Origin: Ignavibacteria bacterium UBA2373
Lineage (GTDB): Bacteria > Bacteroidota > Ignavibacteria > Kapaibacteriales > UBA961
Assembly: GCA_002344005.1 (NCBI GenBank)
Contig: DDTD01000043.1
Location: 1,746-65,745, forward strand
Reading direction: 5' to 3'
DNA length: 64,000 nucleotides
Shown: piece after piece, positions 1 through 27,218 of the stretch
Numbering within the stretch: position 1 is the first letter of the stretch
How the letters are laid out: every line of letters starts with the position of its first letter
The notes under the pieces: generated by a model
What the model saw: only the letters and a program-made list of their open reading frames with translations
What the model was told of the DNA's origin: nothing
Databases searched by the model: none
Position numbers and translations under genes: made by a program

Positions 1-1168
1 GGCGTTGATTGATGAGTATGTCTTTGGGTGCTTCGGTGTCGGGTTTTATGATGTCTGCGATTGTTTGGGTTAGTTGGTCTATGCCTTGTGCGGTTTTTGT
101 GGAGATGGCTATGGTTCCTTCGGGGATACTCATATTGGGTATGAGGTCTATTTTGTTGTGGACGGTGATGATGTGGGTGGTGGGGAATTGTTGTTGGAGT
201 TTGTGTTGGAGTGTGTTGCTGTGGTCGGTGCCTTGCGTTGCGTCATTGATGATGAGTACGAGGTTGGCTTGTGTGATGATTGATTGTGCAAGGTGTATTC
301 CTTCCATTTCGATGGTGTCTTCGGTGTTGCGCAGCCCTGCGGTGTCGGTGATTTTGACGGCTATGTTTTGTATGTGGAGTGTTTCTTCGATGTAGTCGCG
401 TGTGGTGCCGGGTATGTGGCTGACGATGGCTCTTTTTCTGTTGAGCAGTGCATTGAAGAGTGATGATTTTCCGGCATTGGGGTATCCGACGAGTGCAATG
501 TGGAATCCGGCGCGGAGAATTTGTGCGGAGCGGTATTGTTGGGCTAATTGTTGGCAATGATTGATGATTGCGTTGATGTTGTTGCGTATGGTTTGTTTTT
601 CTATGAGTTCGATGTCTTGTTCGGTGAAATCAAGCTCAAGTTCGAGCAGCCCGCAGAGTGTGATGAGTTGGTCGCGTAGTTGTTCAAGTTTTTGTGTGAA
701 TCCTCCGAGTAATTGCCTTGCCGCTGTTTGTGCGCCGATGGTGGATGAGGCGTGTATGATGTCGGCGACGGCTTCGACTTGTGTGAGGTCAATTTTGCCG
801 TTGATGAATGCACGCTGCGTGAATTGTCCTGCTTTTGCGGGTGTTGCACCTTTGTTGATGAGAGCTTGGAGTATTTGTTCGACGATAATCATGTTGCCGT
901 GGCATCCGAATTCGACGGTGTTTTCTCCGGTGTAGGAGTGTGGTGCTTTGTAGAGAAAGGCGGTGACTGTGTCTATGGGATTATTGTGTGTGTCATAGAT
1001 TATGCCATAGTGTATGGTGTGGGATTGTGCTTGTTGGAGTGTGGTTTTTCCTTTGAAGCATTGGTCTGCGATGGCGATTGCATCGTTTCCGCTGAGTCTG
1101 ATGATGGCAAGTCCGGCAGTGCCGGGTGGAGTGGCAAGAGCGCAGATGGTGTCTTTGGTGTTATTCAT
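1..1168 (-). CDS. mnmE: tRNA modification GTPase MnmE (TrmE), partial; the 3' end runs off the window start
   Basis: The reverse-strand translation from the ATG at 1168 gives MNNTKDTICALATPPGTAGLAIIRLSG... with GTPase motifs G1 (GYPNAGKSSLFNAL), TTRD and DTAG. It has no stop codon within the window, so it is absent from the ORF track. The + strand ORFs listed at 9-1180 are antisense artefacts. Confidence 0.85.
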   Translation of the reverse strand, partial: MNNTKDTICALATPPGTAGLAIIRLSGNDAIAIADQCFKGKTTLQQAQSHTIHYGIIYDTHNNPIDTVTAFLYKAPHSYTGENTVEFGCHGNMIIVEQILQALINKGATPAKAGQFTQRAFINGKIDLTQVEAVADIIHASSTIGAQTAARQLLGGFTQKLEQLRDQLITLCGLLELELDFTEQDIELIEKQTIRNNINAIINHCQQLAQQYRSAQILRAGFHIALVGYPNAGKSSLFNALLNRKRAIVSHIPGTTRDYIEETLHIQNIAVKITDTAGLRNTEDTIEMEGIHLAQSIITQANLVLIINDATQGTDHSNTLQHKLQQQFPTTHIITVHNKIDLIPNMSIPEGTIAISTKTAQGIDQLTQTIADIIKPDTEAPKDILINQR

Positions 1169-1207
1169 TGTTATTGTTGATTGTCGGTTATGATGAATAA
1201 AAAATGT

Positions 1208-2284
1208 TTAGAAAAAGAGTATGGTGCGTGGTGTGAGTAGGACATTGAGCGTTTGGAGTGTTTGTCCTTTGTAATCTTTGACGGAAACCCAGCCGTTTTT
1301 TTGGCTGAATTGCGGATAGGTAGAAATCCAGAGTGTGTTGTTATTGGGATTTTTTTGAATGTGATACCATTGGTCATTGTTTGTTGGTTTTGGGAAAAGG
1401 AGTTGTGGTTGGCTTTGTTGAGTTCTAAGATTGATGAGCCATACTCCGGCACTGTCGGCTACGAAGAGAGAGTCTTCTTGCGTGTTGAATGTTGGCACAG
1501 AGGGGCTGCGAAAAGTCCAACGGTTTGTTTCTTGGAGAGTGCGTATGTCATATTGCACGATGCCCCCTTTGAGTCCTGTTGGTGTATTGAGATTTGAGTA
1601 CATGGCATAGAGAGTTCTGCCTTGGTTGGTGATATGAAGTGAGCGTACATTGATGACATTGGTGAGTAGGGCGATTTCTTGGTTTGATTGTCTATTAATC
1701 ACGGAAATGGTGCTTGCTTTTGGTTCATTTTTTCTGAGGTCACCGTAACCGGAGTTTGCTACGAAGATGGTGGCATTTGTGACAGCAATGCCTTCGGGAG
1801 CGGGACCGACGGAGATGTATTCGGTTTTAATTTCGAGTGTCGTTGGGTTGAATTGTTTGATGCGGTCATTGAGTAAGGTAACATAAGCGACGGTATCATT
1901 GAGAATGGCAATGCGTTGTGGCTCATCGCCCGCGCTGAGTTTGATGCGTCCGTCAGAAATACCGTCATTGATGCGTATTTTTTCTATGGTTCGAGATTTT
2001 GAGACGGGAATAAAGATGTGTTGATTCCATCGGACGATGTCATTGCCTGTGTCGCCGAGTCTTTGTCCTTTGTTTTGCAGCGCAAAGTAATCATTGACTA
2101 CGGTGTTGGATTGATTGTCATAGCGAGAAAGAGTGGAGTTGTCCATGCCGAATAATCCTTCGCAGAGTATATATGCGCCGTTGTTGCCTGTGATAGTATT
2201 GGCATTTTCAGGAAATTGAGGTGAGGATATGCACCCACAAAGGATGATAGTCCATCCAAGAATGAAGTATTTGATGAATTGCAT
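1208..2284 (-). CDS. lipoprotein, beta-propeller (YVTN/NHL-like repeat) family
   Basis: It has a signal peptide with a lipobox (LCGC) and repeated beta-strand-rich segments typical of YncE/YVTN beta-propellers. It lies in the same orientation as mnmE, which is downstream of it. Confidence 0.5.
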   Translation of the reverse strand: MQFIKYFILGWTIILCGCISSPQFPENANTITGNNGAYILCEGLFGMDNSTLSRYDNQSNTVVNDYFALQNKGQRLGDTGNDIVRWNQHIFIPVSKSRTIEKIRINDGISDGRIKLSAGDEPQRIAILNDTVAYVTLLNDRIKQFNPTTLEIKTEYISVGPAPEGIAVTNATIFVANSGYGDLRKNEPKASTISVINRQSNQEIALLTNVINVRSLHITNQGRTLYAMYSNLNTPTGLKGGIVQYDIRTLQETNRWTFRSPSVPTFNTQEDSLFVADSAGVWLINLRTQQSQPQLLFPKPTNNDQWYHIQKNPNNNTLWISTYPQFSQKNGWVSVKDYKGQTLQTLNVLLTPRTILFF

Positions 2285-2299
2285 GATGTGGTCGAGATA

Positions 2300-3289
2300 T
2301 TATTTTTTGGGACGACTGACGAACATTCTTAAGAGATTTTCAACATCTTCCGCACCTTTTATCCCCGAAGGTACAGCCGTGTAATCGGTATTTGTTCCCA
2401 TGACGCTCTGTTTATCTTTAGTGGTTTCATCATCTTGTTTGGTGTACATAACCATAACGGCATAGGTGATAAGAAGGATAAATTCCAAACCAAGAGCAAA
2501 GAGAATAATGGAAGGTTCTGTACCGGGAATGAATTTTAGCCCGCGTATGCCGATGATGATGATAAGTGCTGCCGCTCCGATATAGACCAATCCGAGAATA
2601 GTATTACTGTATTGGATGGTGAAATAATGGCGCATATAGAATTTGATTGCCCCGGGTAATTTGAGCAGTGTTGTTAAGCCCATAGAGTTTTGCCATAGTA
2701 AAGCAGCCCTAACCGATTCGAGGTCAGAATAGGGCATATCAATGGTGTGGGCATAATCATGCAAGCGTCGCACATCATTGACAAGGATATTATCAACAAT
2801 TTCTTCAAGTTCGCGATCGGTATGTTCACCATAGAGCTTAACGGCAATATTATCAAGCACATTGACAAGTTCTCTGTAAATCTTTTGTCGTAGCAATCCA
2901 ATGGATTTGGGCAAAAGTCCGGTTATTAATGCTGCAAAAACAATAGAGAGATTGAAAATTAAAGGGAAAAGCGATAAGGAGGGATTGAATAAGTACTTTG
3001 CTTCAATTTTATTGGGGTTATCGGGATGTAAGTCCACAATAGCCCATTGTGTATATATGTTGGTCGAAATGATTTCGGGTTTTGCATCATGTGCTATAAA
3101 GTAATATGCTGTGCTGCCATCATAGATAGCATTAGCGCGCAGCAGGCGATGGAAAAATTCTTCCATCAGCGGAACGCCGACGAAGCGAAACAGCAGAAAG
3201 GAAGAACCAATGATGATTGCGAGAAAGATAATGTATTGCGCAGCGGAGTGTGTGCTTAATTCAAAATATGTTTTCCGAGAAGATGACAT
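2300..3289 (-). CDS. hypothetical polytopic membrane protein
   Basis: 329 aa with about 4 predicted hydrophobic helices. I recognise no family motif. Confidence 0.45.
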   Translation of the reverse strand: MSSSRKTYFELSTHSAAQYIIFLAIIIGSSFLLFRFVGVPLMEEFFHRLLRANAIYDGSTAYYFIAHDAKPEIISTNIYTQWAIVDLHPDNPNKIEAKYLFNPSLSLFPLIFNLSIVFAALITGLLPKSIGLLRQKIYRELVNVLDNIAVKLYGEHTDRELEEIVDNILVNDVRRLHDYAHTIDMPYSDLESVRAALLWQNSMGLTTLLKLPGAIKFYMRHYFTIQYSNTILGLVYIGAAALIIIIGIRGLKFIPGTEPSIILFALGLEFILLITYAVMVMYTKQDDETTKDKQSVMGTNTDYTAVPSGIKGAEDVENLLRMFVSRPKK

Positions 3290-3482
3290 ATATGTTGTTG
3301 TATAAGTGAAGTAAAGCGAAACAATAGTCAGAGATACAAGAACGTTTGTCCATAGGGAACATGATATTCTCTTTTATGAGAGATTAACATAATTTATACC
3401 AAATTGAGTTTTTATGGTGACAAATTTCCTTTTTGACAGTTAATACAATTGCAAAGTACACAATCTTCTTGGTATAGTGTTC

Positions 3483-4046: not shown

Positions 4047-4055
4047 GGAAAAGTT

Positions 4056-6046: not shown

Positions 6047-6125
6047 GAGAACTTTAATAATGTGAGTGTGTATATGGATTTATATATGGATATATGTATT
6101 TATGGATATATCGGTGATTATTATC

Positions 6126-8647: not shown

Positions 8648-8769
8648 TGTTTTATATGATTATTTCATGGCAAAACTACGAAAGTAGTATAAATGCTGCT
8701 GTTTCTCCAGAAAAAAAAGCCATCGCCCCATAAGGAACAATGGCTTTATATCTTTGAATAATAAATGGT

Positions 8770-12202: not shown

Positions 12203-12230
12203 TACGTTATTTATCAATAAGGAGTAGTAT

Positions 12231-15189: not shown

Positions 15190-15204
15190 TCTTCAATTTG
15201 TCGT

Positions 15205-17297: not shown

Positions 17298-20200
17298 TTT
17301 ATGAAAATGTTTCGATTATTTGTAAACGTTGCTTGCGCTGTATTGTGCGCAACGGTTACGCTTTTCTCTCAAACCAACCCCACGCCATATGATTTGTCAT
17401 TGGGTGATTATTCACTTTTGGCTTGGTCTCCGACAAATGCTGCGGGCGTTTATCCTCCGGGGATACGTTTCCATCGTACTGCGAATGGCAGTGCCGTTGA
17501 TCCCGGTTTAGCAGTGGAATTTACCACCGATTATACACTTGCCTATAACTTAACGGGCGGTGTACGTATCAATGGACTTGATAATGACGGATTCGGTATT
17601 GTCAATACCAGCAGCACAACAAATGGTCAACTTGGCGCAGCCGTCCTTGCACTCAATTGTGCAAATCGCTCGAATGTGACTGTGAGCTGGTTAGGTGGCA
17701 CTCTTACGCAAGGTGATGGTAATCCCACACCTCGTGAATATGCCATCCGTTTACAGTACCGCATTGGTACTACGGCGGCATGGACTGATGTGCCGGGACC
17801 AATCGAATATACCTCAGCCGGAAAAACAAATGGACATACACAAACATTCAGTACTGTATTGCCAATAGCAGTAAACAATGAACCCGTTGTGCAATTGCGT
17901 TGGAAATATTATTCGGCAGCAGCGAATAGCGGTGGTCAGCGTCCTCGCTTGCGTTTGGATGACATCGTCGTGACAAGTACTTCTGCATTTGGTACGCCCA
18001 CAGCATTGAAAATTACTTCCATCACCCCAAGCTCACCTTCTTCTACAAGCACATTCGCTGTGACTGTACAATCGGTGAATGCTTTGGGTAATCCTGTGAA
18101 TGTGCCAACGGAAACATCATTTTCTTTATCACGCTTTGCGGGTACGGGTACTTTAGCCGGAACATTAACAGGCACAATTCCGGCAAATCAAAATTCAGTA
18201 ATCGTCAGCGGGGTAAGTTATAATGTGGCGGAAAGTGGTGTGATTATTCTTGCTTCGCGTACTGCCGGTGAGTTATTGACTGATGGTCAAAGTGCCCCAT
18301 TTACAGTCACCCAAGGAGCAACGCAGACTGCTTTAATTGGCATTCAAACCAAAGGATATATTGGAAAAACATTTCAGACATTTACTGTTGAAGCACGCAG
18401 ACAAGATAATAGTGTTGATCCAAATTATACAGGTAATGTCACCGTCACCGTGGCAAGCGGTACAAATTCTGTTATCGGTACATTGACCAAACCATTAGTG
18501 AATGGAATTGCAACATTTAATGATATTCGTTTTTCTGCTGAGGGTACTTATACCTTACGCTTTTCAACAACAGGGTTAAGTTCCATAGACTCACCGCCCA
18601 TTACCATCAATCCTCGCATTACGATGCAAGATGTGCTCATTCCTCAAGTGGTAAAATCTACATCCAATTTGACTCGTGTGCCGGCATATGCTTTGGTACG
18701 TTTCGATAATCTCTTCCCCAATACGACATATCGTTTCATGACTTCGGGTTTAGAAAATCGTACTCTGATTACCTTTGGTGCAGGCAATAATCTCCATTAT
18801 TCTGCCGAAACCAATTCTTTCAATTATTCCTCCAATAAGACATTAACCTCTACATCCGTTCCGCCGGATTATTCAACCTTTATCACCGGTCCGGGTGAAA
18901 CATCCAAATCAGTTTGGATTAATATTCTCACAACAGGCAATACACGCTTTGCTGAAGGTAATTCTATGTGGTGGAGAGTCTTTTTATCGGATATTATTGG
19001 TGGCACACCCGATACATTAACCACAGTAGCTGCCAGCCGATGCGTTGAATTCGGTTCTTCAACCACACAAGCAACAGGTATTTTTGATTCGCAAAGTGGC
19101 GCTACTCCTAAAAACATTATCTGTCTCTATAATAATGAAGAGGGAACAGGTAATCCAGTGGCAACTGCATTGGTGCAAGATGACGGTACGGTGATTTTCC
19201 GCACTTTCGGTACAAATAATGTCGTAACAACCAAAGCCGTTGATTTTTATGAAGCATTAGATCAAGTCGCGGGAAGTTGGGTTACACTCATTCCCAATAA
19301 TTTAACAGGCGGCATTAAGCGCGTCGAAGAACGCCGCTTATCCGATGGTGAGATTGTACGTTTTTATACAGATGCCGATGGTGTATGGTCAACCGTTAAT
19401 ACTGTCAGAACATCATCCGGTATTACAGCTATTGATTTCCGCACGCCTCAATTGACCGTCACTTCGCCTACAGCAGGGCAGGCAATATGCGCACTCACCG
19501 ACCAACAAATTCGTTGGACTTCACGTGGTGTGAGCAATGTGAAAATTGATATTACACGCAATGGAACAGGATTCTCTCCCATTGTTGCTTCCACCGATGG
19601 ATTTGCTCAACTCTATGATTGGTTTATTACCCATGCAGAAAATGATGGCGCAACATATCAAGTGCGTGTTACCGACAATGAACATCCTATGGTGAGCGGT
19701 TTATCCCAACAATTCTCTATCACATTACCGCCTCGATTATTATTCCAGCCAATTTCACAAAACAAATGTATTGGCGACACTATTCTTTTGCGGGTTGGTA
19801 CCGAAGGAACAGCAACGGCATATCAATGGTTCAAAGATGGTCAGCCATTAACGGGCGCAACAACAAATGTTTTGCGTATCCTTTATGCAAGAGAAACCAA
19901 TACAGGAAAATATCAAGTCCGTGTCTCCGGTACATCCATCTGTGGCGATATATGGTCTGACACTGCAATCGTCTATGTCACTCCAGAGCTAACCATTCTC
20001 AAACAACCACAAGATGCTGTCGCACAATTGGGCAAAACACTTTCGCTTTCTGTGGAAGTCATGGGTACGGACAAACATAGATATCAATGGTTCAAAGGTA
20101 ATGTTGCCTTGCAGAACAGCACACGCATTTCCGGCGCACAAACCCCGAATTTGATTATCCGTGAGTTCAAAGCTACTGATAATGGCACTGACTATTTCTG

Positions 20201-21338
20201 CCGCATTTTTGCCGAAGGAAATTGCCAAATCAAAGATACTCGTCGCATTAATGTCGGTCCTTCATCCATTACTTTAGCAACGCAACCCGACACATTGGTT
20301 GCTGCATGCGAAGGGCTACCTTTCACCATGCGTGTTACCACCACTACCGTTCCTGCTGATTTACCATTGCGTTTCCGTTGGTTCAAAGGCAATACAGAAT
20401 TAACAGACGGTAATGGCATAACAGGTGCAACGACCAATACTATAGCATTTGCAAACTCATCCGCAGCAATCGCCGGAATTTATACCGTAAAAGTAGAAGC
20501 ATTATCAGGCAATGCCACAAATCAATCGCACAATATTCGTGTGGTGCTTGGCGATAAACCGCGTTTTATTATTCAGCCGCGTTCACGTGAGGTCTGTGCC
20601 GGAGAATTATTCGTTCTCAATGCCGACGCAATATCCAATTCGCTCATGGAATATCGCTGGATACGCAATGGAGTGCTTTTACCCGACAGAACAAATTCTT
20701 TTGCATTACAATTCGATACTGCCGGTCGCCAATACTTCTATCGTTGTATTGTCACAACCGAATGTGGAAGCGACACATCGGACTTATGCACAATCACAAC
20801 AACAGCATTGCCAACCATCACACAGCAACCGCCTAAAACATTGGCAATAGAGCAATCAAAATATGGTCGTTTGACAGTCGGTGCATTTGCCTCACGAGCA
20901 TTGCGCTATTCGTGGGTCAAAGACGGCAAAGCCATCGAAGGCAATAATTCTCCCGTTTTAGAAATTGCCATCGCAACCAAAAAAGATGAAGGCAAATATT
21001 GGGTGAATGTGATAGGGGATTGCGATACTCTAAGCAGCGACACAACCATCGTCACCGTCACTGCGCCATCATCGCTCAGCGAAGAAGAAACACAACGATT
21101 TGTCACGCTCTCGCCCAATCCGGCACATTCCTTTGTCACAGTATTCGTGAATCCATTGCTCAAACCATCCGCAATGCGTATCACTGATATGATTGGCAAA
21201 GAAATCATGCGCTTTGATGCTCAACAAATCAGCGAATCCATGCAAATAGATGTGCAGAACTTTATGTCCGGTCAATACTGGATTACCCTTCAATCCGACC
21301 AAGGCATACTTGTCTTGCCATTGCATATCATGAAATAA
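17298..21338 (+). CDS. very large secreted protein with about 5 Ig-like (I-set) domains and a T9SS type-A C-terminal sorting domain
   Basis: It has a signal peptide (MKMFRLFVNVACAVLCA) and repeated W/FKxG...GxYxVxV Ig-like modules. The C-terminus (LSPNPAHSFVTV...MSGQYWITLQSDQGILVLPLHIMK) matches the Por secretion-system C-terminal domain. The ORF track starts at GTG 17283. Confidence 0.75.
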   Translation, partial: FMKMFRLFVNVACAVLCATVTLFSQTNPTPYDLSLGDYSLLAWSPTNAAGVYPPGIRFHRTANGSAVDPGLAVEFTTDYTLAYNLTGGVRINGLDNDGFGIVNTSSTTNGQLGAAVLALNCANRSNVTVSWLGGTLTQGDGNPTPREYAIRLQYRIGTTAAWTDVPGPIEYTSAGKTNGHTQTFSTVLPIAVNNEPVVQLRWKYYSAAANSGGQRPRLRLDDIVVTSTSAFGTPTALKITSITPSSPSSTSTFAVTVQSVNALGNPVNVPTETSFSLSRFAGTGTLAGTLTGTIPANQNSVIVSGVSYNVAESGVIILASRTAGELLTDGQSAPFTVTQGATQTALIGIQTKGYIGKTFQTFTVEARRQDNSVDPNYTGNVTVTVASGTNSVIGTLTKPLVNGIATFNDIRFSAEGTYTLRFSTTGLSSIDSPPITINPRITMQDVLIPQVVKSTSNLTRVPAYALVRFDNLFPNTTYRFMTSGLENRTLITFGAGNNLHYSAETNSFNYSSNKTLTSTSVPPDYSTFITGPGETSKSVWINILTTGNTRFAEGNSMWWRVFLSDIIGGTPDTLTTVAASRCVEFGSSTTQATGIFDSQSGATPKNIICLYNNEEGTGNPVATALVQDDGTVIFRTFGTNNVVTTKAVDFYEALDQVAGSWVTLIPNNLTGGIKRVEERRLSDGEIVRFYTDADGVWSTVNTVRTSSGITAIDFRTPQLTVTSPTAGQAICALTDQQIRWTSRGVSNVKIDITRNGTGFSPIVASTDGFAQLYDWFITHAENDGATYQVRVTDNEHPMVSGLSQQFSITLPPRLLFQPISQNKCIGDTILLRVGTEGTATAYQWFKDGQPLTGATTNVLRILYARETNTGKYQVRVSGTSICGDIWSDTAIVYVTPELTILKQPQDAVAQLGKTLSLSVEVMGTDKHRYQWFKGNVALQNSTRISGAQTPNLIIREFKATDNGTDYFCRIFAEGNCQIKDTRRINVGPSSITLATQPDTLVAACEGLPFTMRVTTTTVPADLPLRFRWFKGNTELTDGNGITGATTNTIAFANSSAAIAGIYTVKVEALSGNATNQSHNIRVVLGDKPRFIIQPRSREVCAGELFVLNADAISNSLMEYRWIRNGVLLPDRTNSFALQFDTAGRQYFYRCIVTTECGSDTSDLCTITTTALPTITQQPPKTLAIEQSKYGRLTVGAFASRALRYSWVKDGKAIEGNNSPVLEIAIATKKDEGKYWVNVIGDCDTLSSDTTIVTVTAPSSLSEEETQRFVTLSPNPAHSFVTVFVNPLLKPSAMRITDMIGKEIMRFDAQQISESMQIDVQNFMSGQYWITLQSDQGILVLPLHIMK

Positions 21339-21365
21339 AACACTTAGCAAAACTCTCATAACAAA

Positions 21366-21400
21366 GCTCATTGTCACACAGGCAATGGGCTTTTTTATTT
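21366..21400 (+). terminator. rho-independent terminator of the T9SS cargo gene
   Basis: Stem gctcattg/caatgggc (with one U-G wobble pair) is followed by TTTTTTATTTT, 28 bp after the stop. Confidence 0.6.
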
Positions 21401-21414
21401 TGTAGCCACAGAAT

Positions 21415-22020
21415 TTCCCTCAAACCAACCACAAAGTATTCAATCCCGAAGGGATGATATAGTAATAGGAACAAGTCCATAGCAAAACCAAATCCCAACG
21501 GGATGACATACACAATGACTATACCGCTCCTTCGGAGCTACGGATACTTTCTCTGGCTTCATTGTCTATGAATATATCGCTCCTTCGGAGCTAATTCCAT
21601 CATCAACCAAAAACAATCGCCTTCCAACCACAAACCACAACCATCCAAAATTCCCCTCTTGAGGGGTGTCCGAAGGACGGGGTGGATAAACAAAACCGTA
21701 TCCATATTTCATTCAATCCCAACGAGATGATATAGTAATAGAAAACCACATTCTCCCCATCCAACCACATTTCATTCAATCACAACGGGATGATATAGTA
21801 ATAGAAAACCATATTATCCCCATCTAACCACATTTCATTCAATCCCGAAGGGATGATATAGTAATAGAAAATCATATTCCCTCAAACCAACCACAAAGTA
21901 TTCAATCCCGAAGGGATGATATAGTAATAGAAAACCATATTACCCCAAACCAACCACATTTCATTTAATCCCAACGGGATGACATAGTAATAGGGGAATC
22001 ATTGACAATTGACAATCAAC
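21415..22020. repeat. tandem array with an exact 63-bp period (5 complete units from 21706 to 22020, plus a 54-bp partial upstream copy), each unit carrying a GC-clamped triloop hairpin
   Basis: The unit consensus is atttcattcaatccc-RAN-gggatgatatagtaatagaaaaccatatt followed by a variable 14-16 nt tail (cc..aaccac). Unit starts are at 21706, 21769, 21832, 21895 and 21958. Sequence 21415-21468 is a perfect 54-bp copy of 21877-21930. Stop codons occur in all six reading frames. Confidence 0.85.
21469..21705. other. unique hairpin-rich segment embedded in the 63-bp array; candidate structured non-coding RNA (ncRNA)
   Basis: It carries two copies of GCTCC-TTC-GGAGC (21526-21538 and 21579-21591), a CCCCT-CTTG-AGGGG hairpin (21653-21666) and a GTCC-GAA-GGAC hairpin (21668-21678). 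It has no coding potential. Confidence 0.3.
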
Positions 22021-22248
22021 CTAAAAATACTATCTAACAAGCTAAAAATACTATCTAACAACCTAAAAATACTATCTAATAACCTAAAAACATAATCTAA
22101 TGACTTAAAAATATTATCTGACAAGCTAAAAATGTTATCCTATGACATAAAAACATAATCCAACAAGCTAAAAATGCTATCTGATGACCTAAAAATACTA
22201 TCTAATGAGCTAAAAATGCTATCTGACAACCTAAAAATGCTATCTGAC
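22021..22248. repeat. 11 tandem direct repeats with an exact 21-bp period (consensus ctaaaaatactatctaacaag), giving phased A5-6 tracts
   Basis: Unit starts are at 22021, 22042, 22063, 22084, 22105, 22126, 22147, 22168, 22189, 22210 and 22231. The array ends about 90 bp upstream of the start of the 22339 gene. Confidence 0.9.
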
Positions 22249-22338
22249 TTGTTGGAACATGATTTTTTTGTCTTAGAATTTGGTTTATTGTCTATTGTAT
22301 AGTATTTTTGCTTTATATATATTTCATTGAGGATTATT

Positions 22339-23508
22339 ATGGCTGATGTTAAACGTACATTTTCTATGCCCTATGCAGAATTAGTAAGCTTTGCTAATAT
22401 GTTATGTCAAAATTTGACGACAGATTTGGCTTTATTTGCTGATTATGGCGTGACTGCGCCTAAAATTGCTGCTTTGCAGGCATTGTCTGATGCTTTTGAG
22501 GCGTTCCCGTCGGATCAAACATTTGTGTATCAGATGATGATTGCCACTGAAGATAAAAATGCTAAACGTGATGAGCTTATTAAGCTGATTAAGTCTTTTG
22601 CGGTGAGGTTTGCGGCTGTGTTCGGGTTCGATAGTCCGCGTTATAAGGGCTTGAAAACAAGTAATATAGGGTTGCAAACGGATTTGAATGTGTTGGCTAC
22701 TGCTCGTTTTGTGGCGCAGGAGGCGGAAAGCTCTTTGGCGCAGCTTGCTTCGGAGGGCATAACGCAGGCAATGGTGGATAATTTTGTTGCCGAAGCGAAT
22801 GAGTTTGAGCAATTGATGTATGCACAAAAGTCGGCGAAGATGTTGCGCTCGGTGAAAACGGATGAACGCGCTACGAAGGGCAATGAAATTTATACTTTGA
22901 TTGTGAAATATTGTTCGTATGGCAAGCAAATTTTCGAGGCGGGCACTGCTAATTATGAAAAATATGTGATTACGGATAGTTATGTGCCGCAAACGCCTCC
23001 GCAAGCACCGGAAACGCTGTTTTATCAAAATGGCGAGCTTTCTTATAGCGAAAGTGATGGGGCATCGAGCTATAAAGTGGAGCGCAATCCCACTCCGACG
23101 GATGAAAATGCGTGGATTATTGTCTATGAGGGCGATGAAACGGAGGTTGCGGTTGGTCAAATTGGCGATGGTATGCGCATGAGGGTCTGGGCACGTAATG
23201 ATGCCGGCTTCTCGGTGAATCCAAGCTATTCGGTATATAGTGTTGTGTTTTTGAATGTGCCGAGTAATTTCCATTTTTCTGCCGGAACGCTGTATTGGGA
23301 TGCGGTTGATTGGGCTAATGGCTATGAATTTGAGTCTTCATTGAATCAAACAGAGTGGGAAGTGTTGAGCAATCAAAATGTGTTGGAATATACGCCTGTG
23401 CCGGGTTCGGGTATGGTGTATTATCGTGTGCGGGCAATGTATGGTAATGTGCATTCGGATTATGCTGCGGTGATTGGTATTGATTGGGGTAATGTGGTGA
23501 ATGGGTGA
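22339..23508 (+). CDS. hypothetical protein: N-terminal alpha-helical domain of about 220 aa plus two FN3-like domains; no signal peptide
   Basis: A GAGGA Shine-Dalgarno sequence lies 5 nt upstream of the ATG at 22339; the ORF track begins at 22327. FN3 hallmarks are present (YKVERNP...MRMRVWARN, and GYEFESS...MVYYRVRAMYGN). The coding strand is strongly G+T-rich. Confidence 0.6.
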   Translation: MADVKRTFSMPYAELVSFANMLCQNLTTDLALFADYGVTAPKIAALQALSDAFEAFPSDQTFVYQMMIATEDKNAKRDELIKLIKSFAVRFAAVFGFDSPRYKGLKTSNIGLQTDLNVLATARFVAQEAESSLAQLASEGITQAMVDNFVAEANEFEQLMYAQKSAKMLRSVKTDERATKGNEIYTLIVKYCSYGKQIFEAGTANYEKYVITDSYVPQTPPQAPETLFYQNGELSYSESDGASSYKVERNPTPTDENAWIIVYEGDETEVAVGQIGDGMRMRVWARNDAGFSVNPSYSVYSVVFLNVPSNFHFSAGTLYWDAVDWANGYEFESSLNQTEWEVLSNQNVLEYTPVPGSGMVYYRVRAMYGNVHSDYAAVIGIDWGNVVNG

Positions 23509-23641
23509 GGGGAGAGTTGATGCTTTTAATCCAACAGAAATGGAATGGCAATAGGGGAAACGGAATTTATATGTAATCAATTAAAATAAAGTGAGAATTT
23601 ATAATACAATTTTGTAGTCATATCATATTTAGAAGGAGATT

Positions 23642-24058
23642 ATGGTGAATCAAATATTTCAAATTTCTAATGATAATTTATGGAATTTAATTAATGACCA
23701 TTTTGGAAATGGTGGAGGGGTCTATAAAATTATTGCTATGAGTGATAATAAACCTACAGCAATAAACAGATTTATTGGCATAGACACAACGGGTGTACTT
23801 TATATAGGAAAAGCAGACTCTTTTGTGGATAGAGTAATTACTTTAAAAAGGTCACTATTACCTGATTATACTGATACGAATCATAAAGTTGGTAAAGTAT
23901 ATAAGGAACATCCAATAATTGCAGCACATTTTCCACTTGAAAATTTATATGTTGATCTTCAAGCAGATGACAATCCGGAAAACCTTGAAAGTATATTGAT
24001 TGATGAATATTTTAAAAAATACGGTGAGGTCCCTCCACTAAATGCAAATCAGAGTTGA
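23642..24058 (+). CDS. hypothetical small protein (138 aa) with a weak GIY...YIG-like motif pair
   Basis: It has an AAGGAG ribosome-binding site. The motifs GVYKI and LYIGKA are separated by about 26 residues, which is longer than in the canonical GIY-YIG nuclease domain. Its AT-rich composition differs sharply from the flanking GT-skewed genes. Confidence 0.45.
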   Translation: MVNQIFQISNDNLWNLINDHFGNGGGVYKIIAMSDNKPTAINRFIGIDTTGVLYIGKADSFVDRVITLKRSLLPDYTDTNHKVGKVYKEHPIIAAHFPLENLYVDLQADDNPENLESILIDEYFKKYGEVPPLNANQS

Positions 24059-24094
24059 TTACATAATTTTTATTAATGTTAACAAATAAAATTT

Positions 24095-24134
24095 AGGGCA
24101 GTTCAAAAAGAGCTGCTTTTTTTTTGTTTGAAAA
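24095..24134 (+). terminator. rho-independent terminator (copy 1 of a duplicated terminator module)
   Basis: The sequence agggcagttcaaaaagagctgc is followed by T9. It lies 37 bp after the stop of the 23642-24058 gene. Confidence 0.6.
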
Positions 24135-24208
24135 TGTAGTATATTGCATTTGAAAAAGGTTCCCGCGCGTTTATGAATTAGGGGAGTCGTAAGGGAAATC
24201 TTATCAAT

Positions 24209-24247
24209 AAGGGCAGTTCGCAAGAGCTGCCCTTTTTTTGTTTAGAA
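24209..24247. terminator. rho-independent terminator (copy 2, likely bidirectional)
   Basis: gggcag-ttcgcaagag-ctgccc is followed by T7. It overlaps the stop of the convergent outer-membrane-protein gene. Its sequence is near-identical to copy 1. Confidence 0.6.
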
Positions 24248-24883
24248 GTAAAGTCTTGCGGTGATGAAAGTGGAGGTATAGAGTGCTGTTGTGTTGGATG
24301 TTGAAGGGCTTAGTGCTGCGGGTTCTATTTTGGGATTGCCTTCATTGTAATAATTGAGTTGCGCTTCGATGCCGAGCGAGAATTTTTTTCCTAAGAAGTA
24401 TTCGCCTCCGATTGTTGTTGCTATGTTGATAGCTGTTGTATGGACTGATGTGGCATTGATGTCAGTGGCGGTGTTGAGTTCGGATTTTTTTGCGGTGAGT
24501 ATTGTGGAAGGTCTGATGCCGATATTGATTTGGAGATTGTCTGTTATGGTTGATGTGTAGAGTATTCCGATGCCGATTCGCATTAGTGATTCTGATTGAG
24601 TTTGTGTGGCTGTGTATTGTTGATCATTAGATTCGCTTTTGTATGAAGTTTGACTTAAGCCGAATACGGGTTCGATGCGGAGGTGTTGTATGATGTCAAT
24701 GGGTATGAGAAATTCGGGTAGAATCATTGCTTTTTGCGCTGCTGCATTTTCTTTGATTGGTGCTATGAATGAGAGTGCTGCACCTAATCCAATGCGGAAT
24801 GAAGGTTGTTGGTTTTGTGCTTGGAGGTTTGTGTGTATGATGATTGCTGAAAGCAGTGCAATGATGGCAATTTTGTTATTCAT
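24242..24883 (-). CDS. outer-membrane beta-barrel protein (OmpW/porin-like family)
   Basis: It has a signal peptide (MNNKIAIIALLSAIIIHTNLQAQ), alternating hydrophobic beta-strands, and a C-terminal aromatic residue (ARLYF). Confidence 0.7.
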   Translation of the reverse strand: MNNKIAIIALLSAIIIHTNLQAQNQQPSFRIGLGAALSFIAPIKENAAAQKAMILPEFLIPIDIIQHLRIEPVFGLSQTSYKSESNDQQYTATQTQSESLMRIGIGILYTSTITDNLQINIGIRPSTILTAKKSELNTATDINATSVHTTAINIATTIGGEYFLGKKFSLGIEAQLNYYNEGNPKIEPAALSPSTSNTTALYTSTFITARLYF

Positions 24884-25010
24884 GATGTATGGAAATAGAG
24901 AGTGATTGAAGAGTATTTATGCTAAGATAGAGAAAGTTTGTGAGAAAGAGTGTGTGGTTATTGTTGATTTGTATGCAGTTTTGTTTGTGGCGTTCTAATG
25001 AAGTAATGGC

Positions 25011-25943
25011 TTGTTCGTCAAGGTTGGACATATTGTAGGGAAGAAGTCATTGGAAGATTCACGAAAATATTTGCGTCCGGAGGTTGTAGCGCAGCTTTCG
25101 AGTATTGAGTTGCGTGCTCGGCTTGTGGTTGAGGGTTTTATTACGGGTTTGCATAAGTCGCCGTATCATGGATTTAGTGTTGAGTTTGCGGAGCATCGTC
25201 AGTATCAGCCGGGTGATGATTTGCGTTATATGGATTGGAAGATAGTTGGTCGTTCGGGTCGTTATTATGTGAAGCAATTTGAGGAGGAGACGAATTTACG
25301 AGCGATGATTTTTTTGGATTGCAGCGGTTCTATGCGTTATCAGTCGAAGGGTCATATACGTAAGTTTGATTATGGAGCTTATGTTGCGGCAGCTTTGGCT
25401 ATGTTGATGATGAAGCAGCAAGATGCAGTTGGTCTTGCATTGTATGATCGGAGCGTGCGTTCATTTTTGCCATCTCGAAGTAAACAATCATATATTCGTG
25501 AGTTAATTAAGTCAATCGGGTCGGCAGAGCCATCGGAGCAAACGGGCACGGCAGAGGCATTGAATGGTTTGGCAGAGCGTATGGGTCGTCGTGGATTGGC
25601 AATAATTATCAGCGATTTTTTTGATGATACGGATTCGATAGTGCAGGCATTGAAGCATTTCCGTCATCGTCATCATGAGGTGATAGCGATGCAGATATTG
25701 GATCCTCGTGAGCTTGATTTTAAGTTGGGAGGCGATGTTACGCTTATTGATATGGAAACGGGCGAGAAGTTAATGACGCAACCGCAGCATATAGGAGCTT
25801 CGTATCGAGAGGCATTGCTTGCGCATAATGCAACGATAAAGCGTGAATGTTTTCAACGTGGTATTGATTATATATTGATAGATACTTCGCAGCCATTTGA
25901 TATTGCTTTGCGTGAGTATTTGGCTCGTCGTCGTCGTTTGTGA
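25011..25943 (+). CDS. DUF58 domain protein (vWA-like, of the type usually associated with a MoxR ATPase)
   Basis: The DUF58 signature is present (GxHxSxxxGxSVEFAEHRQYQPGDDLRYMDWKIVGRSGRYYVKQFEEE). The start codon is TTG. Confidence 0.8.
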   Translation: MFVKVGHIVGKKSLEDSRKYLRPEVVAQLSSIELRARLVVEGFITGLHKSPYHGFSVEFAEHRQYQPGDDLRYMDWKIVGRSGRYYVKQFEEETNLRAMIFLDCSGSMRYQSKGHIRKFDYGAYVAAALAMLMMKQQDAVGLALYDRSVRSFLPSRSKQSYIRELIKSIGSAEPSEQTGTAEALNGLAERMGRRGLAIIISDFFDDTDSIVQALKHFRHRHHEVIAMQILDPRELDFKLGGDVTLIDMETGEKLMTQPQHIGASYREALLAHNATIKRECFQRGIDYILIDTSQPFDIALREYLARRRRL

Positions 25944-25952
25944 TTTTTTTAT

Positions 25953-27218
25953 TTGTTTGATATTGTGAGTGTTATGGGATTAGTGGCTTTTACGGAAATT
26001 GGCAGCGTACTGATGATGCGTTCGTCGAGTAATCGTTTGTCGGGTTCGGCTATGAATGATATTGGTGTGTTGCGCAATGCTGCAATTGTGTTTGATGAGC
26101 AAATACGCTGGGTTGGGAGTATGGATGATTATGTCGCTGGTCGGACAGCGGGACAATGGTCGAATGTGAGTGAGATTTCGCTGAAAGGTCATTGTGTGAT
26201 GCCGGGTTTTGTTGATTCGCATACTCATATAGTGTTTGCGGGTAGCCGTGCGAATGAATATGGTCGTCGTTTGCAGGGTGTGAGTTATCAGCAAATTGCT
26301 TCGGAAGGCGGTGGGATACTTTCCACGATGCGTGCAGTGCGTGATTCTTCTGTGGAGGAATTGGCAGACATGGGAATCCGTTATGCTTTGTCGGCGATGA
26401 AGTATGGCACTACGACTATAGAGGTTAAATCGGGTTATGGTTTGAGTGTTGCGAGTGAGCTGGCGCAATTAAGAGCCATTCGCTTGGTACGTGAACAAGT
26501 GCCGATGCGAGTGATGTCCACATTTTTGGGAGCTCATGATATTCCGCCGGAATATAGAGATAATCGTGCGGGTTATATTGATGTATTGTGTGAGGAGATG
26601 TTACCGATTATTGCCGAAGAAGGTTTGGCGGATTTTTGCGATGTATTTACCGATACGGGTTATTATACGATAGCCGAAACAGAGTATATATTGGGCAAAG
26701 CTGCTGATTATGGTCTTAGAAGTAAGGTGCATGCCGATGAGTTGAGCTATGTGGGCGCGGCAGAGTGTGCGGTGCGAATTGGAGCAATTTCAGCGGATCA
26801 TTTATTGTGCATATCGGAACAAGGCATGAAAAATATGGCATCATCGGTTACTGTTGGTACATTATTGCCGGGCACAGCGTATAATTTGCGATTGCCGTAT
26901 GCGCCTGCTCGTGCCATGATTGAAGCGGGTATGACAGTGGCATTGGCAACGGATTGCAATCCGGGTTCATGTCTGAGTGAGAATATGCAAATGATGATTT
27001 CGCTTGCTTGCACGAATATGCGTATGACCGTAGAGGAGGCATTGGCAGCGAGTACAATTAATGGAGCGGCTGCATTGGGCTTAACCGATAAAGGTCAGTT
27101 ATCTCCCGGTAAAGATGCTGATATGATTATTATGTCGAATGAAGAATATGCGAATATTGCTTATCATTTTGGAGTGAATCACATTGAACAAGTTTGGATT
27201 AAAGGAAAAAAACAATGA
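25953..27218 (+). CDS. hutI: imidazolonepropionase
   Basis: The sequence GFVDSHTHIVFAGSRANEYGRRLQGVSYQQIASEGGGILSTMRAV closely matches the HutI metal-binding and active-site region. The length is 421 aa. Confidence 0.85.
   Translation: MFDIVSVMGLVAFTEIGSVLMMRSSSNRLSGSAMNDIGVLRNAAIVFDEQIRWVGSMDDYVAGRTAGQWSNVSEISLKGHCVMPGFVDSHTHIVFAGSRANEYGRRLQGVSYQQIASEGGGILSTMRAVRDSSVEELADMGIRYALSAMKYGTTTIEVKSGYGLSVASELAQLRAIRLVREQVPMRVMSTFLGAHDIPPEYRDNRAGYIDVLCEEMLPIIAEEGLADFCDVFTDTGYYTIAETEYILGKAADYGLRSKVHADELSYVGAAECAVRIGAISADHLLCISEQGMKNMASSVTVGTLLPGTAYNLRLPYAPARAMIEAGMTVALATDCNPGSCLSENMQMMISLACTNMRMTVEEALAASTINGAAALGLTDKGQLSPGKDADMIIMSNEEYANIAYHFGVNHIEQVWIKGKKQ

Follow-up and report, generated by a model that had tools for sequence, protein, structure and literature searches.

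Two blocks of ordinary genes in the window (the whole 64,000-nt stretch of DNA analyzed here) were strongly enriched in G and T (keto bases) on the + strand, and each adjoined a lineage-restricted module that combines tandem 21-nt repeats with an AT-rich promoter-like stretch and a gene for a ~390-aa helical/FN3 protein. This association is new: the first-pass annotation had described the blocks but overlooked the adjacent repeat/FN3 module, the divergent polarity of the skew, and the raised GC3. The skew is lineage-specific, arose in situ, and is linked to the module, always with the same polarity. Our favored reading, to which we give slightly less than an even chance, is that native genes were reshaped in place by a local substitution bias due to recurrent single-strandedness or damage on the strand leading outward from the module.

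The base count previously given for the first 60 nt (22 G, 24 T, 7 C, and 7 A) was reproduced exactly. The keto fraction of the + strand was 0.666 in region 1-2290 (GC skew, +0.37; AT skew, -0.30) and 0.603 in region 22330-27215 (+0.34 and -0.11, respectively), and was 0.507 in 2300-21340 and 0.504 in 27216-64000. Compared with 2-kb segments outside the blocks (0.507 ± 0.020; maximum, 0.570; n = 1004), the values inside (0.679 at 1-2000 and 0.648 at 24240-26240) were far above chance expectation; in this sliding analysis, which had been proposed as a check, the blocks stood out and the same magnitude was absent from the rest of the window. The six block genes, in both orientations, had third-position keto fractions (keto3) on the + strand of 0.71-0.88 (z = 3.9-7.7; Table 1) vs 0.535 ± 0.045 in 40 other genes, and gyrA and prfA were without skew. 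In the OMP gene, for example, an A+C-rich coding strand made the + strand keto-rich. The strongest skew of all was found in mnmE, whose four-fold sites on the + strand were A.07, C.05, G.57, and T.32 (baseline, about A.32, C.13, G.20, and T.33). GC3 was also higher in the blocks (0.40-0.55 vs 0.286 ± 0.053). Since amino-acid usage moved in opposite ways for genes on opposite strands (TPHQNK share: 35% vs 27% in mnmE; 19% vs 25% in hutI; control genes unchanged), and intergenic DNA within the blocks was also C-depleted, the pressure acts on DNA and follows the strand, not the transcript or gene orientation, as had been claimed.

The extent of the blocks was revised in part. The G+T-rich + strand covered 1-2290, 22330-23510, and 24240-27215; therefore, block 2, previously taken as one tract, is split by an AT-rich insert without skew (23510-24240), while block 1 continues ~190 nt past the left edge of the window, as far as the stop codon of mnmE. 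At a resolution of 50 codons, both right-hand boundaries (2284/2300 and 27215) held, with keto3 falling from 0.68 to 0.52 across the former. It was flat along DUF5074 (0.68-0.76) and dropped from ~0.84 to 0.68 along hutI. The description of the boundaries as sharp was valid within the window, where the skew was step-like by gene, but not at other loci, where it decayed gradually. This step-like profile (0.88, 0.70, and 0.53), with no smooth decay, counts against our favored reading. The 18 kb between the blocks, previously called unskewed, was so overall, but 19800-22250 was amino-skewed: the + strand of the left flank of the module was A+C-rich (C, 22-36% of third positions vs about 10% elsewhere), followed by the non-coding region (keto, 0.38) and the repeats (0.33-0.38 within the 19800-22250 span). 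The sign switched at the promoter-like stretch (keto, 0.33 to 0.71), and the left and right flanks of the module were thus of opposite sign.

Table 1. Features of the two skewed blocks and of the module beside block 2 (keto3, third-position keto fraction on the + strand).
Feature	Position	Strand	keto3	Remarks
mnmE	1..1168	-	0.88	Partial in window; full gene 452 aa, ends ~190 nt beyond left edge; Pfam TrmE_N, MnmE_helical, MMR_HSR1
DUF5074 beta-propeller lipoprotein gene	1208..2284	-	0.71	Pfam DUF5074
Block 1 right boundary	2285..2299			DUF5074 start / hyp329 stop; also between-lineage identity break
Ig/Por-tail gene, 3' 1.5 kb	19800..21338	+	0.30-0.48	Left flank of module; Pfam Ig_3, Por_Secre_tail
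Non-coding region	21339..22016			63-nt tandem repeats (21702-21993), repeated GGGATGATATAGTAATAG motif, REP-like hairpins
21-nt tandem array	22017..22245			About 11 copies, unit CAACCTAAAAATACTATCTAA
Promoter-like stretch	22246..22338	+		AT-rich, T-rich; TAtTTTTG motif (Bacteroidota -7-like)
FN3-A gene	22339..23508	+	0.76	389 aa; N-terminal helical bundle and two FN3 domains; skewed, polymorphic, mobile
Unskewed AT-rich insert	23509..24241	+		138-aa ORF, then two strong terminators
138-aa ORF	23642-24058	+		GC3 0.17; no family match
Two strong terminators	24095-24130, 24209-24244	+		
Outer-membrane beta-barrel (OMP) gene	24242..24883	-	0.82	Pfam OMP_b-brl
DUF58/VWA gene	25011..25943	+	0.78	Pfam DUF58
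hutI	25974..27218	+	0.72	Imidazolonepropionase-like amidohydrolase (homologues carry the name imidazolonepropionase); Pfam Amidohydro_1
Block 2 right boundary	27215			ATGA overlap of hutI with next gene

The module is lineage-restricted and mobile between loci and species. A 21-nt array was found upstream of every FN3-family gene, with the period kept and the unit sequences differing between loci; the copy number differed between assemblies, and the FN3 gene and array were polymorphism hot spots. The stretch preceding FN3-A was assigned as promoter-like from the known Bacteroidota consensus, and its motif also precedes the FN3 genes of three other loci (L008, L014, and L031). No Rfam family or tRNA was found in the non-coding region; the N-terminal domain of the FN3 protein had no likeness to initiator or DNA-binding folds, and DnaA-box-like sites were not enriched, giving no positive support for an origin. 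The FN3, OMP, and 138-aa ORF part varied between relatives. The two terminators lie between FN3-A and OMP-DUF58-hutI, an arrangement awkward for simple read-through transcription.

Both FN3 modules within the 72 kb examined adjoined the two sole skewed blocks. Six module loci had a keto-rich outward strand (read 5' to 3' away from the module), the sign flipping at the array. To the right of the module, keto values ran 0.74, 0.64, 0.64, and 0.60 before reaching baseline in L032 and were 0.67 and 0.61 in L044; to the left, they were 0.29-0.36 in L031 and 0.15-0.37 in L036, the FN3 gene of which had 0.65-0.83. Considering sign alone, this consistency (six loci and one extra flank) corresponds to a P of only about 0.02-0.03. 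The flip occurred within about 1 kb in L031, L036, and the window, and genes of L031 and L032 showed a gradual internal decay of the skew. Relatives without the module at these loci were also without skew. No flank skew was detected at four module loci of a distant FN3 subfamily, despite the presence of array and gene, which speaks against the favored reading. FN3-B, which directly adjoins the strongly skewed mnmE, and P0246 (L032) were themselves unskewed, though their downstream neighbors were skewed; to accommodate these cases, one must further assume that module replacement outpaces skew accumulation.

By synteny, mnmE, DUF5074, DUF58, and hutI are orthologues of genes in related Kapaibacterium-clade genomes and were skewed in place, because their counterparts in relatives are unskewed (65-77% aa identity) or less skewed (91%). 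The order hyp329-DUF5074-mnmE was retained in L010 (65% aa identity), without skew, and in L009 (91%), with a weaker skew (amino3, 0.74 vs 0.87); positions 1+2 in L009 were shifted as in the window (0.60 vs 0.50 in L010), position 3 less so, and of the FN3 gene only 37 aa remain beside mnmE. Similarly, DUF58-hutI-TPR/TGase-Maf-RsmB was retained in L028 and L030, both unskewed, and the skew of DUF58 was nearly all synonymous (94% aa identity to the unskewed L028 orthologue; keto3, 0.59). Relatives of mnmE beyond the 90% cluster were unskewed syntenic proteins (63-65%), while those of hutI followed at 77% and then 68-70%, the examined 77% and 68% ones being syntenic and unskewed. The nearest protein relatives of these four genes were from Kapabacteria and Ignavibacteria. 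Foreign segments from a strongly skewed replicon, the first of three earlier options, were not supported as stated, given these orthologues and relatives and the sign flips within 1 kb; that option is right only in part. The DUF5074-mnmE block was 98-99% identical between two species (flanks, 77-85%) and has been exchanged between them, with the identity break at the skew boundary: the window and L013 differed at 20 sites in 1-2290 (0.9%) and at 44 in 2327-2580 (17%), and the identity between the window and L007 climbed from ~0.88 to 0.97-1.00 at the DUF5074 start.

In four skewed genes, 192 changes in the window lineage lost A or C vs 53 in reverse (control gene, 112 vs 132), a polarized spectrum that mostly restates composition, since saturation had been reached at synonymous sites (pS, 0.72-0.84 among the window, L028, and L030). 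In the unsaturated comparison of mnmE with L009, differing sites on the coding strand carried the amino base in the window in 97 cases and the keto base in 31. Among A/C losses from the + strand, A>G was the largest class, the A>G : G>A ratio being shifted about 15-fold; the transversions A>T and C>G were overrepresented as well, and the sequence around the changes showed no deaminase-type context. A single-strand-specific local process was the best fit among the three earlier options, A and C being lost from the + strand, but its proposed form, deamination by C>T and A>G only, was too narrow because of the transversion excess and missing context. dS between the window and L009 was not raised in the block (0.67-0.72 vs 1.11 in hyp329), block proteins were under purifying selection (dN/dS, about 0.08) with all ORFs intact, and SNPs within the species were few in the blocks and without direction, giving no sign of ongoing activity, which counts against our favored reading.

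In our favored reading, a local bias would, over evolutionary time, strip A and C from the strand running 5' to 3' away from the module, making the + strand G+T-rich to its right and A+C-rich to its left regardless of gene orientation, and this effect would fade across about 2-5 kb. We infer repeated single-strandedness of the outward strand as the most likely cause; strong outward transcription or R-loops may expose it as the non-template strand, or abortive strand-displacement synthesis primed at the module may displace it. Deamination or loss of the exposed amino bases (A and C) would follow, with A>G and C>T arising by direct miscoding and A>T and C>G arising at abasic sites, a logic shared with the heavy strand of vertebrate mtDNA. 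Skewed tracts may subsequently be spread and truncated by recombination around the mobile module, which would account for the sharp gene-junction boundaries in the window and for an mnmE block nearly identical between species.

In vertebrate mtDNA, the heavy strand is rich in G but has little C and A, owing to C>T and A>G changes that scale with single-stranded time (PMC9561281). The composition found here resembles this single-strand-exposed strand in the dominance of A>G/C>T, four-fold sites, dragged codon and amino-acid usage, and magnitude (mnmE, + strand), but forms a 2-5 kb chromosomal patch diverging from a mobile module rather than a genome-wide pattern, with a clear transversion excess and no sign of an origin. 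In bacterial chirochores, the leading strand is G+T-rich with a sign switch at oriC. The outward strand from the switch point is likewise keto-rich here (L012 is a genome-wide case), whereas our skew is local (rest of the window, keto3 0.535), its GC3 skew is 0.6-0.86 vs typically below about 0.2, and the switch lies at an array beside a mobile gene, not at oriC. Transcription-associated asymmetry enriches the non-transcribed strand in C>T and A>G changes and, in mammals, gives the coding strand a G+T excess; it was reportedly described by Francino and Ochman and, in 2003, by Green et al. and Touchon et al., including TCR asymmetry in enterobacteria. The keto excess, unit-like step boundaries, and opposite signs around a promoter-like region are shared. 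However, three of the six skewed genes had the keto excess on the template strand, and sense transcription is thus not the cause, strong antisense or read-through transcription being needed; the magnitude also far exceeded any reported bacterial transcription skew. Targeted hypermutation (immunoglobulin somatic hypermutation and the engineered systems error-prone Pol I/ColE1, EvolvR, and T7 RNAP-deaminase) similarly has a kb-scale reach from a defined element, distance decay, and an A>G/C>T strand bias, but no deaminase, reverse transcriptase, or polymerase gene was found in or near the module, no context was preferred, and the targets are housekeeping genes under purifying selection, in which the skew looks like collateral damage rather than diversification. 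The atypical composition, sharp boundaries, variable FN3/OMP/138-aa ORF part, and near-identical mnmE block recall a genomic island; however, the skewed core consists of syntenic orthologues of native genes, tRNA, integrase, and phage genes are absent, and islands, while deviating in G+C and codon usage, normally keep strand parity.

An unlikely alternative is that the module is a hot spot for breaks or nicks, marked by arrays, hairpins, and frequent cassette replacement, at which 5'-ended outward strands are resected and resynthesized in an error-prone manner; variants are break-induced replication with an error-prone polymerase, or a nascent outward strand left single-stranded. Errors and damage accumulating on that strand only, over resection-length tracts, would fit the polarity and kb-scale extent as well as our favored reading does. 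The recombinogenic locus, with a module exchanged between loci and species, the polymorphic FN3 gene and array, and an mnmE block shared across species amid 15-23% flank divergence, agrees with it, as does the raised GC3 expected near recombination hot spots. From polymerase error spectra, G.T wobble misinsertion on the nascent strand gives A>G and C>T there. That A>T and C>G are in excess, however, indicates lesions of A and C, not wobble misincorporation; by strand geometry, damaged 3' tails retained after resection would give the opposite sign; and dS was not raised in the block. The 15-fold ratio shift would require such events to occur in a considerable share of generations, which is implausible for horizontal replacement.

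We hold it similarly improbable that the tracts were recombined in from an unsampled close relative with a keto-skewed chromosome or replichore, the boundaries being tract ends. Sharp boundaries at gene junctions that coincide with between-lineage identity breaks, exchange of the DUF5074-mnmE block, and unskewed FN3-B beside skewed mnmE favor such import, and genome-wide keto skew of about 0.39-0.41 occurs in reduced symbionts (e.g., L012, Ca. Stammera). However, no skewed donor was found among 5.8 billion proteins, we know of no bacterial genome with the required skew (four-fold A.07, C.05), and the donor would itself need a cause for it. A sign flip within ~1 kb is not expected of a uniform donor replichore; the within-gene decay in L031 and L032 also disagrees, and the retained position 1+2 shift with weaker position 3 in L009 points to gain and decay in place.

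Still less probable is selection or biased fixation favoring a G+U-rich, C-poor outward transcript or G+T-rich DNA strand (evading Rho, avoiding sense-mRNA pairing, or avoiding palindromic targets), or a strand-polar gene-conversion bias fixing G and T on the outward strand. The unraised synonymous rate, as for fixation bias or equilibrium, the excess of all four A/C-losing classes rather than transitions alone, the raised GC3, and the intact proteins are in line with this. On the other hand, the dragged amino-acid usage resembles a cost, not a benefit, the same genes function unskewed in relatives, base-specific mismatch repair should, on our reasoning, yield GC bias without strand skew, and to our knowledge no function needs such a composition across unrelated housekeeping genes. 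An artefact (chimeric assembly, as earlier suspected, polishing error, or damaged template) has practically no probability: although the NCBI long-read MAG copy has indel-type errors (frameshifts), it agreed with the window, and seven short-read contigs assembled independently in different projects (ENA, JGI, and Logan assemblies) matched the window with 100% identity through all three junctions; the DUF5074 protein occurred on 14 contigs and hutI on at least 23, the ORFs are intact under purifying selection, and related species carry the same blocks.

These results point to a local mutation process that is specific to one strand and so far undescribed: in Candidatus Kapaibacterium, an uncultured bacterium from sludge, a few kb of ordinary genes beside a small mobile module have undergone A and C loss on one DNA strand, of about the strength seen in animal mitochondria.

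Strong enrichment of the + strand in keto bases (G+T) was confined to two blocks: keto was 0.666 in 1-2290 (GC skew, +0.37; AT skew, -0.30) and 0.603 in 22330-27215 (GC skew, +0.34), with values of 0.507 in the 18 kb separating them and 0.504 in the 37 kb beyond the second block. In 2-kb windows, keto was 0.507 ± 0.020 (maximum, 0.570) outside the blocks and reached 0.65-0.68 within them. The base counts of the first-pass annotation for the first 60 nt (22 G, 24 T, 7 C, and 7 A) were reproduced and its gene annotations were borne out, as was its reading that the bias tracks the DNA strand: genes of both orientations were affected, mainly at third codon positions. The third-position keto share on the + strand, keto3(+), was 0.535 ± 0.045 in the 40 other genes of the window, including gyrA and prfA. 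Fourfold-degenerate sites of mnmE showed + strand frequencies of A.07, C.05, G.57, and T.32, whereas baseline frequencies were approximately A.32, C.13, G.20, and T.33. GC3 was also higher in the blocks (0.40-0.55 vs 0.286 ± 0.053), and C was depleted in their intergenic DNA. Sharp steps at 2284/2300 and 27215 were confirmed at 50-codon resolution, while the extents required amendment: the first block continues to the mnmE stop codon, ~190 nt outside the window; the second is split by an AT-rich insert that carries no skew (23510-24240); and the DNA between them, described as unskewed, was mostly so except in 19800-22250, where the skew was opposite. Block lengths were 2.5-5 kb, and the 8.5 kb further left of the first block were unskewed. 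The keto-rich, stop-poor strand gave rise to long spurious + strand ORFs antisense to mnmE/DUF5074 (9-395, 561-935, 752-1180, and 1253-1597) and also antisense to OMP, the call for which was replaced by two small + strand ORFs in two Logan assemblies (L026 and L027; loci on other contigs are numbered L001-L044). The ECF sigma-factor gene, with no array/FN3 module (see below) near it, had a mildly raised keto3, ~2.5 sd over the other genes.

Features of the skewed blocks and their surroundings in the window
Feature	Position	Strand	keto3(+)	Remark
mnmE		-	0.88	block 1
DUF5074		-	0.71	block 1
ECF sigma-factor gene	3477-4046		0.65	
63-nt unit	21702-21993 (also 21437-21470)			tandem x4.6
REP-like element	21650-21690			
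21-nt tandem array	22017-22245			~11 copies
FN3-A	22339-23508	+	0.76	389 aa; N-terminal helical bundle and two FN3 domains
138-aa ORF	23642-24058			GC3 0.17
Terminators	24095-24130 and 24209-24244	+		
OMP		-	0.82	block 2
DUF58		+	0.78	block 2
hutI		+	0.72	block 2

The proposal that the blocks are segments from a strongly skewed foreign replicon was not upheld for the core genes. The order hyp329-DUF5074-mnmE (hyp329 adjoins DUF5074) was kept in L010 (mnmE, 65% amino acid identity), in which the genes were unskewed: the A+C share at third positions of the coding strand (amino3) was 0.52 and 0.49. In L009 (91% amino acid identity), this locus was skewed less strongly than in the window (amino3 of 0.74 and 0.62 vs 0.87 and 0.71). 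The order DUF58-hutI-TPR/TGase-Maf-RsmB was kept in L028 and L030 with unskewed DUF58 and hutI (keto3, 0.52-0.59), even with DUF58 sharing 94% protein identity with the window copy. The best database relatives of mnmE and hutI were syntenic Kapaibacterium-clade proteins, followed by those of Kapabacteria and Ignavibacteria. Only the FN3/138-aa/OMP part was, as expected of an island, missing at the locus in L028 and L030. Since syntenic orthologues in relatives were unskewed or less skewed, these comparisons indicate that the skew arose within the lineage of the window, in native genes. The pressure works on DNA. Amino acids with A/C-only codon stems increased from 27% to 35% in mnmE (coding strand, -) and decreased from 25% to 19% in hutI (+), and were unchanged in control genes. 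Purifying selection was intact (dN/dS ~0.08); a raised amino-acid divergence in the skewed genes was dropped as a candidate feature because hutI was equally diverged between two unskewed relatives (dN, 0.256 vs 0.271). The contigs of L008 (CAZWVD010000031.1) and L009 (JAYRWZ010000062.1) sit in GTDB genomes labelled Gammaproteobacteria and Chloroflexota, and are probably mis-binned.

In the window lineage, 192 substitutions in the four skewed genes replaced an A or C of the + strand by G or T (A>G, 99; A>T, 46; C>T, 29; C>G, 18) vs 53 in reverse; since synonymous sites were saturated among the window, L028, and L030 (pS, 0.72-0.84), these polarised counts largely restate composition, and their spectrum was given little weight on transitions vs transversions. 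A neighbouring control gene was symmetric (112 vs 132). The comparison between the window and L009 was unsaturated (pS, 0.44) and agreed in direction: of the differing sites in mnmE, 97 had an amino base in the coding strand of the window and 31 a keto base, with transitions approximately twice as frequent as transversions. The synonymous distance of this pair was not raised in the block (0.67-0.72 vs 1.11 in hyp329) and, for this reason, the sequences fit a shifted equilibrium, in which A and C would be lost quickly and return at ordinary rates, and do not fit a generally raised mutation rate. The suggestion of a local, single-strand deamination-type process therefore stood in part: A>G and C>T losses were found, but the changes were not confined to transitions, A>T and C>G also being in excess. 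Enzymatic editing by an APOBEC/DddA/TadA-like deaminase was rejected on three grounds: the transversion excess, the lack of any 5' or 3' neighbour-base preference in the substitutions beyond codon-position effects, and the lack of a deaminase gene near the blocks. Within-species SNPs in the blocks, sought as a sign of current activity, were few and not directional.

Each block has an array/FN3 module on its left. Left of the second, non-coding 63-nt repeats, the 21-nt array, an AT-rich stretch with TAtTTTTG, and FN3-A follow in this order; left of the first, outside the window, the same layout was found with a different 21-mer in ~20 copies and a 390-aa paralogue (FN3-B) on the same strand. 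Every FN3 family member examined was preceded, at a distance of 75-340 nt, by 5-20 tandem copies of a 21-nt unit, the sequence of which varied with the gene subtype, and the promoter-like TAtTTTTG motif was located upstream of FN3 genes. The FN3 protein family comprised 18 clusters in 5.8 billion proteins, all on short contigs; contigs often terminate within 21-nt arrays, and this probably accounts for their shortness. Array copy number differed between assemblies, by 189 nt or 9 units between L001 (14005-14416) and L003. No informative match was found for the FN3 proteins, the 138-aa ORF, or hyp329 in Pfam, PHROGs, NCBIfam, and PADLOC; the only family matches of the FN3 proteins were weak, sub-threshold ones to the "PQLLE family", a name found in no paper, and no member occurred in the viral contigs searched. 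Rfam (the whole window at the gathering threshold; 21200-24300 permissively) yielded nothing credible, and scans detected no tRNA or tmRNA. The FN3 protein of the second block was 96-97% identical to the copy beside mnmE in L008/L014, a species in which the DNA is only 77-85% identical to the window over 10 kb of flank, and L009 had just a 37-aa FN3 remnant beside mnmE. Judging from these sequences, the module is mobile.

Several further observations concern the module. The family has a modular appearance: FN3-B and P0246/P0247 share 52-53% identity in the C-terminal FN3 half, while their N-terminal halves are unrelated (alignment A1). In L032 (619-1779), the skew starts only in the 3' half of the FN3 gene. 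Sequence comparison suggests that the array and the N-terminal domain may together be the unit exchanged. Each copy of the 63-nt unit contains GGGATGATATAGTAATAG (7 matches in the window vs 0.14 expected), and the other FN3 module is preceded by related copies of the motif (L001, ~14700-14850). A REP-like element (a CCCCTCnnGAGGGG hairpin and GGACGGGGTGGAT) recurs near FN3 modules in several lineages (L001, 14792-14804; L008, 5269-5281; L014, 12409-12504 and 14814-14826) and holds a DnaA-box-like TATCCACC; such boxes were not enriched across the window. The AT-rich 138-aa ORF just downstream of FN3-A, which is followed by the terminators, looks like a recent insertion; L034, but not L032, has a comparable AT-rich ORF (204 aa) inserted in the equivalent position. 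L036 (1-422) contains a 75-nt coding tandem repeat, the units of which include the AT-hook-like KGRGRPKK.

At six loci, the skew obeyed a single rule: irrespective of how the genes were oriented, keto bases were enriched on the strand running 5' to 3' away from the module. Right of the FN3 gene in L032-L035, keto3(+) was 0.74 (-), 0.64 (-), 0.64 (-), and 0.60 (+), and then 0.48-0.49, a gradual decay over ~4 kb; on the right side of L044, it was 0.67 (-) and 0.61 (+). On the left, two + genes in L031 were A+C-rich (0.36 and 0.29; FN3 gene, 0.71). In L036, the sign flips at the array, since two - genes on its left had values of 0.15-0.37 and the FN3 gene 0.65-0.83. In the window, keto3 on the left side of the array was 0.30-0.48 (3' end of the Ig/Por gene), and the switch was located at 22246-22338, adjoining the array. 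Among ~150 kb of non-redundant clade sequence, all tracts of at least 600 nt with keto ≥ 0.60 or ≤ 0.40 adjoined a module, save one marginal 600-nt stretch (keto, 0.61; window 58901-59500) within a gene of ordinary keto3 (0.55), and relatives lacking the module at a given locus had no skew there. Counter-evidence came from four loci of a distant subfamily (L039-L042), which have the array and gene with unskewed flanks, and from two FN3 genes that were themselves unskewed though their neighbours were skewed. Import of ready-made skewed tracts from an unsampled skewed donor seems improbable, with the sign flips at arrays, the gradual decay, and the L009 pattern all against it.

Recombination has nonetheless moved skewed DNA between species. 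The DUF5074-mnmE block was 98-99% identical between the species of the window and that of L007/L008/L014, the flanks of which differ by 15-23%, and the identity jump sits at the start of DUF5074; between L013 and the window, there were 20 differences in 1-2290 and 44 in 2327-2580. Since the identity break coincides with the skew step, the skew boundary at 2284/2300 is, on this pattern, also a recombination boundary. Within-species variation was concentrated in the FN3 gene and array. Skew in the window is step-like by gene (0.88, 0.70, and 0.53), whereas in L031 and L032 it fades gradually inside genes, and recombination around the mobile module, spreading and truncating skewed tracts, would explain this difference.

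The heavy strand of vertebrate mtDNA is G-rich and C/A-poor, with C>T and A>G accumulating with single-stranded time (PMC9561281). A comparable process may operate here, and we tentatively favour, at somewhat less than an even chance, the reading that the outward strand is recurrently exposed or damaged, starting at the module. From established repair chemistry, damage to A and C in single-stranded DNA would remove both bases, through transitions and also through A>T and C>G changes, with deaminated A and C miscoding directly and abasic sites being bypassed. Three geometries would give the observed sign: the outward strand could be the non-template strand during outward transcription or in R-loops, the strand displaced during strand-displacement synthesis from an origin-like site, or the lagging-strand template of forks moving away from the module. 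The array, AT-rich region, and co-varying gene resemble, by analogy, an iteron origin or an auto-regulated promoter. DnaA boxes (TTATCCACA with ≤ 1 mismatch) gave 29 matches in the window vs 23.7 expected, without clustering; the FN3 protein showed no Rep-like or winged-helix fold and no resemblance to an initiator; and FN3-A is separated from the OMP-hutI tract by the two strong + strand terminators. In view of these results, we commit ourselves to exposure or damage of the outward strand only. The fuller account, that a clade-restricted mobile module locally initiates R-loops or abortive strand-displacement synthesis, thereby imposing mitochondrial-grade asymmetry on several kb of housekeeping genes in both directions, and that the tracts then cross species by recombination, is possible but doubtful.

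Break-initiated, error-prone resynthesis as the source of the asymmetry is improbable, and selection or biased fixation acting on strand composition is more so. A fork-barrier model, in which a protein-bound array stalls forks, was rejected since it predicts the opposite sign, and base-specific heteroduplex repair since it would produce GC bias without strand asymmetry. Artefact (chimera or polishing error) has a practically negligible chance of being the source. In reverse complement, the window corresponds to ~396-460 kb of contig JADJPC010000003.1 (MAG GCA_016713455.1; Candidatus Kapaibacterium, activated sludge); seven independently assembled ENA/JGI/Logan contigs were 100% identical to it over all three boundaries, which also rules out polishing, and the DUF5074 protein and hutI were found on 14 and at least 23 contigs, respectively, identical junctions in many assemblies thus excluding the chimera that had been proposed. 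Frameshifts in the NCBI long-read MAG copy (L001, 12548-13719; L022, 16129-17546 and 19567-20929) split FN3-B (into 116 + 278 aa), RsmB, and a sigma-54 activator; as the same genes are intact in short-read assemblies, these are likely residual indel errors.

Among known systems, chirochore skew follows the same sign rule, but it is replichore-wide and switches at an origin with DnaA boxes or a dnaA context, whereas the present skew is confined to 2.5-5 kb blocks, with other genes at baseline, and switches beside a 21-nt array without DnaA-box enrichment. The asymmetry of mtDNA matches in spectrum, magnitude, composition, and direction; in mtDNA the changes are graded with exposure, and the decay here was gradual in L031/L032 but step-like in the window. 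Sense-transcription asymmetry is a keto excess of the coding strand, while the coding strands of mnmE, DUF5074, and OMP were A+C-rich (GC3 skew, -0.73 to -0.86), the keto excess thus lying off the coding strand in half of the affected genes. The kb-scale geometry relative to a start site is common to this skew, somatic hypermutation, and engineered targeted mutators. Diversity-generating retroelements combine a reverse transcriptase with paired template and variable repeats, and their changes are adenine-specific and lie in a short variable region; this combination was not found here, where there is no reverse transcriptase. Iteron-type origins combine tandem 17-22 bp iterons, an AT-rich region, and a cognate initiator gene; the arrays and AT-rich stretch before each family gene are iteron-like, but the protein lacks a Rep-like fold. 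Horizontally acquired islands carry genes that close relatives lack or hold elsewhere and that have their nearest homologues in another lineage, whereas the skewed core genes are syntenic and the nearest relatives of mnmE and hutI belong to the same clade. In L012 (Candidatus Stammera capleta, CP144769.1), keto was ~0.38-0.41 on one strand over most of a 21-kb locus; this reduced symbiont is a useful genome-wide comparator, and its skew is weaker than the local skew of the window. In the literature searched, neither the module nor comparable local skews were described. Strand-asymmetric mutation pressure is itself known, and its local, extreme, element-linked form appears to be undescribed.

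Strand asymmetry in bacteria is treated as a weak, replichore-wide signal; that of the window is instead both local and extreme, and is linked to a mobile element. Such tracts imitate horizontally acquired DNA in compositional island finders, yield long spurious ORFs on the stop-poor strand, and distort marker-gene phylogenies, e.g. that of mnmE. If initiation at the module is correct, the window would hold the first example, in a bacterial chromosome, of a strand-polar mutational field driven by an element, and would offer a natural bacterial system for mutagenesis by single-strand exposure (R-loop, D-loop, or transcription-coupled damage), in which a small genetic element would set the mutational equilibrium of neighbouring essential genes and shift their codon usage and even their amino-acid content, one way for genes on one strand and the other way for genes on the other.
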